Shown here: positions 3,611 through 62,537 of the stretch, in pieces
Layout: every line of letters begins with the position of its first letter
Numbering within the stretch: the first letter of the stretch is position 1
Assembly: GCA_965112155.1 (NCBI GenBank)
Contig: OZ218099.1
DNA length: 64,000 nt
Source of the DNA: Podarcis liolepis
Lineage: Eukaryota
Direction: 5' to 3' (one strand)
Notes under the pieces: generated by a model
What the model was told of the DNA's origin: nothing
The model's database searches: none
The model's input: the letters and a program-made list of their open reading frames with translations, nothing else
Program-made: the position numbers and the translations under genes

Positions 3611-5622
<2,012 letters not shown>

Positions 5623-13592: not shown

Positions 13593-13652
13593 ATACTTGG
13601 TTACTTTGACTATGCTTTCACAGCCATCTTTACTGTTGAAATCCTGTTAAAG
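13593..13652 (+). CDS. CACNA1D: IIIS2 mutually exclusive exon 22 (60 nt): ILGYFDYAFTAIFTVEILLK
   Basis: tgcag acceptor, aag|gtaatt donor. Confidence 0.95.
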
Positions 13653-13732: not shown

Positions 13733-13792
13733 ATCCTAGGGTATGCAGATTATGTCTTCACTAGTATGTTTACATTTGAGATCATTTTGAAG
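13733..13792 (+). CDS. CACNA1D: IIIS2 alternative exon 22a (60 nt): ILGYADYVFTSMFTFEIILK
   Basis: ttccag acceptor, aag|gtaaca donor; same length and phase as the exon 80 nt upstream, clearly paralogous. Confidence 0.93.
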
Positions 13793-15593
13793 GTAACAGG
13801 TTTACAAAGAAGTTTACTTAAAAAGGATTTTTTTCTGTGTGTCACCTGCCACGAAAAGGCACTTGAAGTGTTCTCCGCCTTTTCACTCAACAACCAAATC
13901 TAAACCTTTTTTTGAAACCAAAGGATATTTTTCGTCATGGTTTTTATTCTATTTTACCTTTGGGTGCATGTAGAAGCTACTTTTTTATCATCACATCAAT
14001 CTGACAGCTCATTTTATCCTTTTTTTCTACTTCCGGTTTGTCAGAAGAAGGAAAACTATTTCACTACGCATGAGCTTTCCTCCTCCCTTTTCTGGCATTT
14101 CAAAGAGAAAGATCTTAAATCTTTTAAAGGAGGAGCATGTAATTACTCATTTCTCTTTCTGAACTATATATTCACAGAGTTAAAATAGTAGACCACTATT
14201 TTCTTGCAAAGGGACTTGCAAGATACTCTACCCTTTCTAAAACCTACTAGGATGCTTTATCTTGGGTATACATTTAAATACACGAAGAGGCATGAACATG
14301 CTTACTTAAATGTATTGCCCATGCATGAGTTCAGAACTGGTATTTCAATGTATAGTCTGTGTACTGATTATCAAGGACATCCACCAGGGGCGCTCAGAAT
14401 TCTGATGTACAGATTGCATTGGTGCACAATTGATGCTGAAGTCAAGCTGCTCCACCATTGCAGAATAAGGAGGAACATATAGAAAATGTGAGCATGCATT
14501 TTGATGCCTTCGAGATTGGGATCATCTGTTGTAGCCACTTCCATCTCAAGTTACTTATTGAGTATTCCTGGATATGACACAGGACCCAGTGGTATTATAA
14601 GAATCAGTACATAAACTTTGCATTTCCAGCTGAGGATCAAACATAATAAATCTATTTCCTGCTTTATTCATATTATTGTGTGTTCTTTTTACAGTGCATT
14701 TTGATTAACACTTGATAATGAAACTAATTGGGCTGTTTACAAGATATGCTCAGTTTGATAAGGGATAAGGTTTTTAGTTTTTAAAACGTTCTGAATGTGT
14801 TTCATATTTCTACCAGTGTAGCATTTCAGAGCATGCTATTTTGAAAAGGGCATGTCTCTTAGCCCTTCTGTTGGCATGTTTTGCCAGGAAAGTGGGAAAC
14901 TATTTAGCATGATATTAGGGGGACTGAAATAAAGGGATATATGGTGTAAAGAAGATTGTTTATATTATAACACAGCTGTTCCTCATTCTAGTGCAGGGAT
15001 TGCTAACCTTTTATTGGCCCAAGGGTCTCATTCAGCCTTGCCCAGGGACCATACACCAATGGTGCATGCGTCTCTCACTCGCACGCACACACACGCGCAC
15101 ACACACACACCACACAGACCCCCTCCTCACCTGAACTGTGCTATGACCCCCAGCCTGCTCATTTCCCCCCTAGGTCAGGGATCAGCCACCCTCTGTTCTA
15201 GTGGATGCTACATTGTGCTATAGCCATTTGAAGTGAATTGTGCCCTAAAATTAGAACACATCAAAAACCCAGAACCTAGCTGTTCAGCATTATGTAACCA
15301 AAAGGAAACATCTGCTACTGATTCCTGAACGTAGTTTCTGGTGGCTTACATTTTGTGTGTGCGCCTGCATTTTTCAGTCCACAGTATTTTATTTATCAGT
15401 GTTGTATTGTGGATAGCCAAAGACAAAATGTGCATTAGTGTTGCATCAATCAAATTCTTTCATTTTGGTCTTTTTTGTAGTATTCCAGTCTCTCCAGTAA
15501 GCAAGATTCATTCAGTGCAAGCATCTTGTAAACAGCCTTGTGAATCAAGCAGAGGTGAAACAAAATAATTAACTATGACCTTTCTGTTTTTAG

Positions 15594-19341: not shown

Positions 19342-19687
19342 TAACATGGAAACCGACGTCTAGTATCCGTTGTTTCAGAAGAGGGTGCTTTTCCATTTTA
19401 CTTATTTCTATTAAAGAGTAAATTTCCTCATGAACAATCATTGGATAGTGGTAGAGTGCAGCATGCAGACTTAGGCAACTGAAAAGTTAACCATGGCCAT
19501 ACTACACATTCATGTCTTTCTTTCATAAATAAATTGTTTCAGAAATAGGAAACCCCTCCACATGTGAGGTAGCCCGCATATATTGGAGGTATCTTAGGTT
19601 ACTTCTCTGATGTGAAGCTTGTTTTGATGTTATTTCCAGTTAAATTGTGACCCTCACTGCTATGTTTGAAATTTCTGCCTCTTATAG

Positions 19688-19912
<225 letters not shown>

Positions 19913-20123
19913 TAATGTTAAGCCACTTTGCAGTAGACTTAATTATAATTCAGAATTCTAATTGCTTGTATAATTTAAGGATGAAGCCTTGTGCAGGTGT
20001 TAAAGGCACAAGAACATTCATTAGTTCAAGATTATGAAAAGAACTAAGGGTTGTTTTTTGTTTTTGTTTTTATTTACTGCCTACAAATATTCTGAATAGT
20101 CTTCTCATCTGTTTCATTTGCAG

Positions 20124-20234
20124 CACTATGGGCAGTCTAAACCTTTTAATGATGCAATGGATATTCTAAATATGGTTTTTACTGCAGTGTTTACTGTTGA
20201 AATGTTTCTGAAACTCATTGCATTTAAGCCCAAG
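20124..20234 (+). CDS. CACNA1D: Exon 30 (111 nt): [37 protein letters not shown] (IVS2)
   Basis: ttgcag acceptor, aag|gtaaga donor. Confidence 0.96.
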
Positions 20235-22238
20235 GTAAGAGAATTTGCATTGTTTAGTTAGGATTAGTTATGCCTTTGGATCAGTTCTCTTAAAACCACA
20301 TGTTTTTTCTGTTTAAAGAGACAAATAGCAAACAAGATTTCGTGGTAAAGTATCAGAGAAATCTTCACAGAACTATTCCATCTGATAATGCTGTGCATGC
20401 AACTGCAGGAAATGAGACGTAGAAATGTTTTTTAAATGGTTGCTGAGCAATAGATGCGGTCAGAAGTATATTGCTGTTAAATCCCCTCTTTCTAAATCAT
20501 TCCTTTCTAGAGCGGAAAAGTATTCTCCCACCACCTTAAATTGTACACACACAACACAACAATTATTCATGAACTTTTGTAGACAATACTAAGGTTAAAT
20601 AAATACTATGGATTAGCTAGCACACTTGACCACTTTAGTAGCATAATATCACAAACCACTGTCACATAAATGGTCAAAATTAAAGCTGCTTGAACACACA
20701 AGTATTTACAAATTGGTTCTTTTGACAGCTGTTAGTAAACATTTTCAAAGACACAAGCAGGTTTGAGCAATGGTGAGCACTTCATATAAACCTGAGTTTG
20801 AAACCAAAACTTTTTTTAAAATTCAGAATTTGTTAATTTTATAATTTTGATGTAGATTTCTTATGTACGATCTAATTTCAACCATTTTCTTGTGCCTGTG
20901 GCCTTGCAGTGAGCTTTTGCAGCCTGAGAGCCACATTCCAGAACTGGTTGTGGTCAAGAGCAAAGTGGGTGTGGCCAGCCCACATACACAAACCACACTT
21001 GCACACAACACACATCCATCCATCCTCTCACTGACTCACTCACACACCTGTTTTGTCATGCACAGTTCCAGCCTCTCACTCCCACCTCCCACCCATACAC
21101 ATTTAGACTTAAAAATACTGTACCTTCTATTAGTTCTTAGAGGAATTTCCCACCACACACATCTACTTGCAGTGTGTAGGGCATATTCCTAGAAAGTTAC
21201 AGTGCATGGGGAAGGCTAAGCCTTCCTTCCCCAGCTGTGAAGCTCCCGAAAATAACCCTACATGGCAGGTAGAAGGATGGGAGCCACAGGCTGCATCTGG
21301 CCTTTGAGCCTTGGCCTCCCCACCCTGACTTAAAATGCTGTTTTTTCTTGGAAGGCAAAAAATAAATAAAAAGCATCTTCCTCTTTTTTTGGAGAACAAT
21401 AGCATGCTGCATCGATACTCTTCTCCCTGCAGAAAGGAGTCAGCCTACGTGTTCGTGGAAGTTCCATTGTTGGAACATCCTCTTATTTTATTAAAAGCAT
21501 CTGGGGGAAAGGGGTAATTTGGATAAGGGTGGGGTTCCTCCCCACGTTGATTACTAGCCAGTTACTATCCCCCTTCCTCCAAGGTGCTCTTAGCTGTGAA
21601 AGAGAACTGTATGGATTAAACTCTTAAGTCTGTTAAATTTTCCCCTCTGCAGCTGGTACCAGCTTTGGAAGGGGTAGTTTAGGTGAAGGCAGTAGTGCAA
21701 AGGCAGAGGGTCAGGGCCCCTCACTGTAGCCCTAAACTAAATTGAAGGGGCCATGCCTGGTTTTGGAGAAATTAAACAGCATCAGGAGCATAGGCTAGTC
21801 TTACTGTTAGAAGAGGTGGTCACTTCAGGCGTCAAAGGCAAGGGGCAAAAATGGGTGAGGACCTGTTGAAGGGCAGAGCCATGAAACCTGTTCTGCTTTC
21901 CTTAAGCTAGCCTGCTTTCCTCAGGTGCAGTGGAGGATGTTCTGCTGCTGACAGCATTGAAGTAAGATTAAACTATCAGTTTGGTTGGCTTTCGTATGTG
22001 AAATGGGAGGGAGGGTGCCATCTTGTCCTTCACCTCTTGGGCTGGTCCTGATCAGGTGATCCAACTACAGAACATCCATACCATGCGCAGTGCTTGACCA
22101 TTCTGAATTGGTGATGAGAAATTTACAAATAAAGGTGTTTTAATGCCAGCTGAAACTAATGTTAGATGTATAATTTCATGAAAGACAACTGTTGCCTAAT
22201 TAGATATGGAATTGTTTCCTTTTGCCATTTTGAATCAG

Positions 22239-22268
22239 ATTTGTGTGCCAAAAAAGAAAAGATACCTA
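22239..22268 (+). CDS. CACNA1D: Alternative 30-nt microexon (30a-like) in the IVS2-S3 loop: ICVPKKKRYL
   Basis: tttccttttgccattttgaatcag acceptor, cta|GTAAGT donor, phase 0/0, no stop; resembles the 10-aa chicken hair-cell insert (recalled as IFVRKKERWL). Confidence 0.8.
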
Positions 22269-24173
22269 GTAAGTAGATGTACATTGGGTTTTTGCAGTGA
22301 TGAAAGCTGTGAGATGTGTGATGCAAGTATACTTGCTGTGACTTGTCCATATATTGCATTCTCCCTTTTCCAGAGTCATCTTTATTTCTTTTACTTAGTG
22401 TTATCTATCTATTTATTTATTTATGTTTGCTTGCTTTGGCTTTGCACATTGCTGGGAACAATATTTGTACACGCTGACAGGAAAGGTTTGCCTTAAGAGA
22501 TTGATATGTGACATGTTGTTCCAATATTCTGGCAGTTCCCATAGTATCTCCATTGGACTCATTCCTTCCAAGTAGAAAGTCTGCACAAGACTCTCACACC
22601 ACAATGATAGGGTCTTATAATTGCCTCCTGCTCAGCAACTGATGTTCTGCTTGAGGGGAAGGTTTTCAGCCCATCAGCATTTCTTCAGGAGTGTCTGATT
22701 CCTGTCCATGGTTATCTTCAAATACTTGAAAGTTGTCACATAGGACCCAAACCAATGAGTTCCAAAGCTATGATTCTAATAGAAACATGGCTCACAATGC
22801 TTTATAATGCTTGAAATTCTTTTTTATGCTAATGTTGTAAGAACAGAATGTGAAATTACAAAGAAATAGGCCCTCTCTTCATGGGATAATCATGGGATTA
22901 TCAGGAAAGAACCTGATAATAAAACTCCATACCCTTTAGAGATTTCATTGAACAAATGAGTCTTCAGAAATATCTGGTGGTTTGGAATAACCCAAGTAAT
23001 AAAGTCTGGAAGTGCTAGTTATGCTGGTTTGTTTGTTTTTATTTTCCTTCCCAAATTTGAGATTAAAAGGTACACTAATAGTACAGAGCAGAACTGTTTC
23101 AAAGCTGTTTTAAAAATATTTCTCAATAAGCACACACAAGTAGCTTAAAACTAGCAAGGGGCTTAAATGCTGCCCATTAGCTTTATGTAGTCTGTCTTGC
23201 CTTTCACCATTATGTCACAGTGTTTCTGTTCTGAGCACCATCTTTTTCCATTTCAAATTGACTTGGTTCATTTTCAAGCGCTTCTTAAGGATCCCCCCCC
23301 CCCATAAACAATAGTGGTGATGCATCAGAGTATTGAAGGACATCCTGTACAAGAAACCTGGGGGAGGCAATTTGCAACCGACTGATCTTGCTGCTGCCCA
23401 AGGGTCAGCTTCTCCCCCAAATAGGCATGCTATAGGAATTTGATTTCTGTCATTTCCGGTGCAAACTGACATGGAATGCACACTCTGGACCTAATGTGTG
23501 GATTAAAATCAAATGAGCCCCTGGGATTGTGCACTTATACAAATTTTGTAATCCACTTCTTGGTTCAAAAAATGTACCTCCCCCCCCAAAAAACCCACAT
23601 GTATTTTGGCCTAAAATACATTTAGAAATGTAAATGCATTTAAATATTTCATTAAAAAAAATAATCACAGAATAATGCAGAAGGCAGATGGAATGGATTT
23701 ATGAATAAGCCCGTGTGAAATTGTCACAGTGGGAATAGATTAATCTGCCGATCTCTAGCCGCAGTAGTTTAGGAGAACAGAATAGCCACCCTAAGTTGTA
23801 GTATAGTTTCCAGCCTTTTACCCTTTGGAAAAGGATTGGAAAGTGGACTCCTCTGAGGGCAGGGGTATGGAACATCTGGCCTGTGGGCCTAATCAGACAA
23901 ACCAACAGGATCCAATTTCCACCCTGTCCTGTACAAACCTGTTTACATTCACACAGATTCAGTGCTCTTCAGATTCCTGTCAGCATGTGGGGATCAAATC
24001 ATGTCACATATCAGCCTTTCCTTCAGTAGACAATATTGTTTTGTTTTTCTCATGACACCATGGATTTTTGTTTGAAGTAATTTCTGTTTATGAAAAAACT
24101 AAACAGAAGTATGCAAATATTTTGACATTTCATGTGTAATCACAAACGTTTGCACCCTGCCTGCTCTGTTCAG

Positions 24174-24257
24174 GGCTATTTTAGTGATGCCTGGAACTCG
24201 TTTGACTCCCTCGTCGTTATTGGCAGCATAGTAGACATCGTTCTCAGTGAAGCCGAT
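24174..24257 (+). CDS. CACNA1D: IVS3 mutually exclusive exon, first copy (84 nt): [28 protein letters not shown]
   Basis: gttcag acceptor, gat|gtgagt donor. Confidence 0.95.
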
Positions 24258-24574
24258 GTGAGTATACCCCAGCCAAACCCCTTCAGTCCCACTTCTCTCT
24301 TTTCCGTTTTCCTACTTATTTCTATTATCTGGACAAGTCACAGAATTTGGATATATTTCTAAACTGAATGCAAGCCATTCATAGTTCAGCTATGGCAATT
24401 TAGGAAAACAACTAGCTTCTGTTGGCTTCCCATTTTCTCAGACTTGAGGTGAAAAATGCAGTACTGGTGCATTGCGGAAGCTCAGATTGTGTTTCTGTGT
24501 TATAACACTGTCCTTTTTCTTCTCTTTCTTTTCTGTTTCTGTTTTCTCGTGCTACTGAATGCTTGTCCTAACAG

Positions 24575-24658
24575 CACTATTTCACTGATGCATGGAACAC
24601 TTTTGATGCCTTAATTGTTGTTGGTAGCGTCGTTGATATTGCTATAACAGAAGTTAAT
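24575..24658 (+). CDS. CACNA1D: IVS3 mutually exclusive exon, second copy (84 nt): [28 protein letters not shown]
   Basis: ctaacag acceptor, aat|gtaagt donor; paralogous to 24174-24257. Confidence 0.95.
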
Positions 24659-35305: not shown

Positions 35306-35350
35306 CCAAAGCCAACTGAAACTGTCACTGTCACAACTGATGAGTCTGGG
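35306..35350 (+). CDS. CACNA1D: Cassette exon 32 (45 nt), IVS3-S4 linker: PKPTETVTVTTDESG
   Basis: tttttaaag acceptor, ggg|gtaaga donor, phase 0/0; expected position and length of the Cav1.3 IVS3-S4 insert. Confidence 0.88.
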
Positions 35351-35781: not shown

Positions 35782-35910
35782 AACAATGAAGAGAGTGCTA
35801 GGATCTCCATCACCTTTTTTCGCCTTTTTCGAGTGATGCGATTGGTAAAGCTCCTCAGCAGGGGTGAAGGGATAAGAACTTTGTTGTGGACATTTATTAA
35901 GTCTTTTCAG
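35782..35910 (+). CDS. CACNA1D: Exon 33 (129 nt): [43 protein letters not shown] (IVS4)
   Basis: cttttag acceptor, cag|gtaagt donor. Confidence 0.97.
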
Positions 35911-62199: not shown

Positions 62200-62537
62200 T
62201 TCTAGGCTGCATCAACAGAAGTATAGTGTCCAGATCAAGGGAAGTAGTAGTACCACTCTATTCTGCCTTAGTCAGGCCACACTTGGATACTGTGTCCAAT
62301 TCTGGGCACCACAATTTAAGAAGGATGCTGACAAGCTGGAACATGTGCAGACGAGGGCGACCAAAATGATCAAGGGTCTGGAAACTAAGCTTTATGAGGA
62401 GTGCTTGAAGAAGCTGGGTATGTTTAGCCTAGAAATTTTGAAACGGGAGAGATATGATAGCCATCTTCAAATAACTTTAAGGACTGTCACATGGAGGAGG
62501 GAGCATGTTGTTTTCTCCTGCTCTGGAGGGTAGGACT
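62200..62537 (+). mobile_element. CR1 LINE ORF2 fragment, frameshifted
   Basis: [28 protein letters not shown] and [10 protein letters not shown] are CR1 ORF2 C-terminal motifs. Confidence 0.9.

Follow-up and report, generated by a model that had tools for sequence, protein, structure and literature searches.

In the basilar papilla of the chicken, Kollmar et al. are said to have found, in 1997, an enrichment of a 10-residue insert between segments S2 and S3 of domain IV (IVS2-S3); in 2017, Bellono et al. reportedly attributed the low threshold to the basic residues that the insert carries. The exon of the low-threshold Cav1.3 isoform of electroreceptors and hair cells is, we presume, the one that encodes the 10-residue insert found here. 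In published accounts, this isoform activates at a lower threshold (PMC9167971), the inner-ear form of Cav1.3 is named the "long isoform" (bioRxiv 10.64898/2026.10.07.757263), and skate Cav1.3 has a lower threshold, activates more steeply and inactivates more slowly (PMC10064067; also PMC5429088, PMC13069148). Chicken, pigeon, sharks and skates are already known to have the exon, and RefSeq contains the exact lizard peptide in three squamates. Here we compare with these systems a locus of the lizard Podarcis liolepis, contained in a window (the whole stretch of DNA analysed) of 64,000 nucleotides. We consider it very probable that this locus carries an ancient optional exon of CACNA1D, which adds 10 residues to the S2-S3 loop of voltage sensor IV and likely lowers the voltage at which Cav1.3 opens in sensory cells of the hair-cell type.

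Host gene and splice signals of the exon

The exon upstream of the insert has as its best PDB match human Cav1.3 (7uhf, residues 1226-1262). The nearest named proteins are the alpha-1D proteins of Podarcis muralis; their alignment follows the window one exon after another, in most cases at 95-100%, and the host gene is therefore CACNA1D. The exon numbers (30, 31a/b and 32) follow the preliminary description of this DNA and general usage. The features around the insert are the following.

20124..20234, + strand: upstream exon, encodes IVS2 and ends ...AFKPK
22196..22200, + strand: candidate branch point CTAAT, its A at about -40 (consensus only)
22214..22238, + strand: pyrimidine tract with UGC at -16 (22223-22225) and AG acceptor (22237-22238)
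22239..22268, + strand: CACNA1D cassette exon, ICVPKKKRYL, IVS2-S3 loop insert (30 nt, phase 0)
22257..22259, + strand: codon 7 of the insert, AAA (Lys); Glu in all six non-squamate variants sampled
22269..22274, + strand: GTAAGT donor of the 30-nt exon
24174..24257, + strand: exon 31a, GYFSD..., IVS3
24575..24658, + strand: exon 31b, HYFTD..., alternative IVS3

The AG, the 30-nt in-frame exon, the GTAAGT donor and the UGC within the pyrimidine tract, all noted in the preliminary description, were borne out. Both junctions of the exon are phase 0, the pyrimidine fraction upstream of the 22239 acceptor is 0.73, and a junction search with the Anolis protein as query recovered the junctions 20234/22239, 22268/24174 and 24257/24575, in exact agreement with the coordinates of the preliminary description. 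The 200-nt stretch around the exon has a single match in the lizard's own genome (1.57 Gb). Scored with splice matrices derived from the 27 U2-type junctions of the gene itself, the acceptor at 22237-22238 ranks 19th and the GTAAGT donor 16th among the 27 sites. In the 54,820 intronic bases, five further AG...GT segments (9-51 nt, multiples of three) have at least the splice score of the exon, and two of them are stop-free in frame 0. These two, at 14130-14138 (9 nt) and 62482-62529 (48 nt), probably match the score of the exon by chance. RNA structure around the exon was nothing special (z = +1.22), and no UGCAUG occurs within 200 nt on either side of it. The splice signals alone do not beat chance, so the case for the exon being real is made by homology.

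Several other features of the gene deserve mention. The intron at 3732-5413 has GTATCCTT at its 5' end and TCCTTAA about 20 nt before its 3' AG, the signature of a GT-AG intron of the minor spliceosome (U12-type). The pair of 60-nt exons at 13593-13652 and approximately 13733-13792 (ILGYFDYAF... and ILGYADYVF...) are alternative IIIS2 exons, one of which is presumably the second hair-cell-enriched event in chicken. At 35312-35350, the 39-nt IVS3-S4 exon has a weak acceptor (score 0.6), with another AG 4 nt upstream of the chosen one; the frame of the window from 35312 reads PTETVTVTTDESG, while Anolis and chicken differ with PKPTETVTTDESG, and given this mismatch the true acceptor may lie another 6 nt upstream, which would make a 45-nt exon. 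About 300 nt upstream of the 30-nt exon, the short stretch 21903-21957 is common to many unrelated contigs, which diverge beyond it, and resembles a fragment of an interspersed repeat.

Conservation and distribution of the insert

Seven variants of the insert were collected.

ICVPKKKRYL: Anolis, Crotalus and Pantherophis, identical to the window
ICVSKKERTL: tuatara
ICVRKKERWL: softshell turtle
IFVRKKERWL: birds, including chicken UniProt isoforms 5-7, and two turtles
LFVPKKERTL: catfish (Pangasianodon)
VCVEKKERWL: Heptranchias and Narcine (shark, electric ray)
VCVKKKERWL: two skates

Among the 127,942 six-frame 10-mers of the window, the peptide of 22239-22268 is the best match for six of these variants and ties for best with the chicken one, and the intron that holds it is the one intron where insert variants map. 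The lizard peptide is identical at 10/10 residues in RefSeq proteins of Anolis (XP_062825988.1 and XP_062825982.1), Crotalus (XP_039216835.1) and Pantherophis (XP_034292970.1). The preliminary description took the exon to be a probable orthologue of the avian IVS2-S3 insert, and this is supported: the chicken peptide that it quotes is found exactly, at the same junction, in UniProt isoforms 5, 6 and 7. Judged from these comparisons of sequence, 22239-22268 is a real optional exon of CACNA1D, orthologous to the known IVS2-S3 insert.

Five positions (V3, K5, K6, R8 and L10) are invariant across the seven variants. Cys2 is present in five of them, with Phe in its place in birds, two turtles and catfish; this cysteine is ancestral and no novelty of the lizard. 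Position 7 is Glu in six variants and Lys only in squamates. Net charge goes from +1 in shark and electric ray, through +2 in catfish and tuatara and +3 in birds, turtles and skates, to +4 in squamates, whose insert is, by this count of residues, the most basic among the seven.

The taxonomic survey drew 379 proteins from protein searches and cluster look-ups, of which the first 344 were tallied; 316 of these were grouped by their printed names, and 28 (alpha-1C, alpha-1F or unclear) were left out. The counts refer to annotated proteins with a readable site after the IVS2 exon, in a sample that one query biased toward inserts. On these terms, the 10-residue insert was present in 4/26 proteins of squamates, 1/1 of tuatara, 3/11 of turtles, 18/63 of birds, 6/21 of teleosts (all Pangasianodon) and 9/10 of cartilaginous fishes, and in none of 44 amphibian and 118 mammalian proteins with a readable site, zeros that, in annotations alone and with such a bias, do not prove loss. 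The preliminary view of a sauropsid-wide exon is too narrow, since the presence of the insert in catfish and cartilaginous fishes dates the exon to jawed vertebrates. The suggestion that gene predictors miss the exon fits Podarcis muralis, where none of the four models has it and where the exon can now be placed as a gain for annotation, but not Anolis, Crotalus and Pantherophis, for which RefSeq annotates it. The next exon after the insert is 31a in 40 of the 41 insert-bearing models, a count to be read knowing that models with both exons list 31a first and that many of the bird models were probably projected from the chicken protein.

Among shorter proteins, sought for transcript-derived fragments, only a bird protein of the existing set has the insert, and none of 35 new proteins does. 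A long insert in a frog is unrelated to the 10-residue one, and a 56-residue insert in camel was counted as not the exon. Eight inserts of 7-13 residues, all starting with Val, at the IVS2-S3 junction of seven bird CACNA1C proteins and one CACNA1F-like protein of Anolis, were left out; they are probably spurious, arising from intron read-through or forced by homology to chicken alpha-1D.

Transcript evidence and regulation

Four runs from related organisms, of unspecified tissue, compared over 19600-24500, gave no junction across the exon; the two raw RNA runs contributed one and five reads, and the other two are contig sets guessed to be RNA, with mainly intronic cover and exonic contigs liable to filtering, while the junctions of 31b lay beyond the stretch compared. 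One contig runs unspliced through the 30-nt exon to 22273. Another, 23303-24257, keeps the intron before 31a and joins the end of 31a to the exon that begins at 35782, so that 31b and the IVS3-S4 exon are left out. This partly spliced contig suggests that the intron holding the 30-nt exon is removed late. RefSeq models include the insert in three squamates, annotated as optional among isoforms; they lend its inclusion in mRNA indirect support and, coming from two snakes and an anole, they suggest that inclusion may not be restricted to the ear.

Wider definitions of microexons extend to about 51 nt. It is possible, although on the whole doubtful, that the 30-nt exon is one of the broadly neural microexons dependent on SRRM3/4, with inclusion throughout the brain and retina of the lizard and no enrichment in hair cells. 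Its UGC at -16 lies near the tract's end, as in the motif that marks Srrm4 targets (PMC3464207; PMC10987577), and the three squamates in which it is annotated have transcript sets that probably lack ear tissue. The same motif, offered in the preliminary description as a mark of SRRM4 dependence, gives no such support, because UGC at -20 to -6 is carried by 7 of the 27 acceptors of the gene, including those of 31a and 31b, and control by SRRM4 is therefore unsupported. Furthermore, the exon exceeds the strict microexon definition of 3-27 nt; in the 11 of 18 files of a mouse supplement that were covered, the Srrm4-regulated exon of Cacna1d is "ex. 41"; and only 4 of the 26 squamate models contain the insert. 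A zebrafish srrm3 supplement had, in the two of its five places covered, only unrelated cacna1da rows. RBM24 is described in PMC10018040 as another regulator of cochlear Cacna1d exons, and the row examined in the supplement of that paper does not mention the 10-residue insert. Control of the 30-nt exon by SRRM3/4 is a guess, one that concerns regulation and can coexist with the low-threshold explanation for hair cells.

Proposed function

In the mechanism that we favour for the low-threshold explanation, the insert, with four basic residues out of ten, lies in the cytoplasmic S2-S3 loop of voltage sensor IV, and would be included mainly with exon 31a and enriched in inner-ear hair cells. Its fixed K-K-x-R cluster, at the inner face of the membrane, likely biases the sensor of domain IV toward activation; the biased sensor would produce a standing Ca2+ current near rest, which in turn would sustain tonic release at ribbon synapses and, together with BK channels, electrical resonance. 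That the lizard exon biases sensor IV is inferred from the published low-threshold Cav1.3 of skates and from the inserts of skates and sharks at the site needed. In a low-confidence AlphaFold model of the domain IV sensor of Anolis (pLDDT 56.8, the insert below 50), the insert lies in coil that joins the S2 helix (36-63) to the S3 helix (83-103); neither this model nor that of a bird fragment of 986 residues (mean pLDDT 42.5, the insert below 50) gave a usable structure of the loop.

Alternatively, the exon could be conserved and yet act in docking, lipid binding or trafficking, with no bias of the sensor; its basic patch may bind anionic lipids, and its juxtamembrane Cys may be acylated. The invariance of the hydrophobic V3 and L10, the presence of Cys2 in five of the seven variants, a net charge that varies from +1 to +4 and the maintenance of Glu7 in six variants would all agree with such a role, which we nevertheless find quite improbable: the phenotype published for the isoform is a lowered threshold of activation (PMC9167971), and Phe takes the place of Cys in birds, two turtles and catfish. 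A reading of the exon as a pseudo-exon arisen by chance, or as a silent relic, present in squamate annotations only through homology to the chicken protein, is highly improbable, for despite its middling splice scores, the five equally scoring segments, the lack of a junction in the four runs and its absence from the four Podarcis muralis models, its peptide is identical at 10/10 residues in lacertid, iguanian and snake, its sites and frame are intact, and it is the best or tied-best 10-mer of the window for all seven variants.

The Glu-to-Lys change in squamates

If the ancestral codon was GAA, the change from Glu to Lys at position 7 corresponds to a single G-to-A change. Our literature search found no paper on this squamate change, although primary papers or bioRxiv supplements may show one. 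A more speculative proposal, which we regard as unlikely, is that squamates fixed this charge reversal in the middle of an otherwise invariant motif, with a Cav1.3 whose opening voltage is even more negative than that of the forms in birds or skates, in a lineage-specific retuning of the hair-cell synapses of lizards and snakes. Net charges from +1 to +4 establish no simple charge scale. If the proposal is true, the squamate Lys7 exon is a mutant made by nature with which the charge model of low-threshold gating can be tested; Lys7 is a cheap natural test of how the charge of the loop sets the activation voltage. Neither this change nor the link to the low-threshold isoform of sharks and skates had been noticed in the preliminary description.

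Comparison with known systems

The closest counterparts are the squamate isoforms in RefSeq (Anolis carolinensis X8/X2, Crotalus tigris X2 and Pantherophis guttatus X7), which have the identical insert at the same junction, followed by 31a, and show no difference from the lizard exon at the protein level. The chicken Cav1.3 insert agrees with that of the lizard in junction, length and phase, with six of ten residues identical, and differs by F2C, R4P, E7K and W9Y (chicken to lizard), for a net charge of +4 in the lizard versus +3. The inserts of the skate and of the shark and electric ray occupy the same junction and also share six of ten residues with the lizard (C2, V3, K5, K6, R8 and L10), but the acidic residue of their K-K-E-R core is Lys in the lizard.

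Lizards are not known to have electroreceptors. The "long" Cav1.3 isoform of pigeon is presumably made with the same exon as the lizard insert, and the bird inserts sampled all have the chicken sequence. No magnetosensory claim is possible for the lizard. According to two later texts (PMC9167971; bioRxiv 10.64898/2026.10.07.757263), the account of magnetoreception by induction in Nimpf et al. 2019 draws on this inner-ear isoform, and general tuning of hair cells is an option raised in PMC9167971 itself. The wide retention of the exon, intact in lizards and snakes, favours a general tuning device of sensory cells over a marker of electroreception or magnetoreception.
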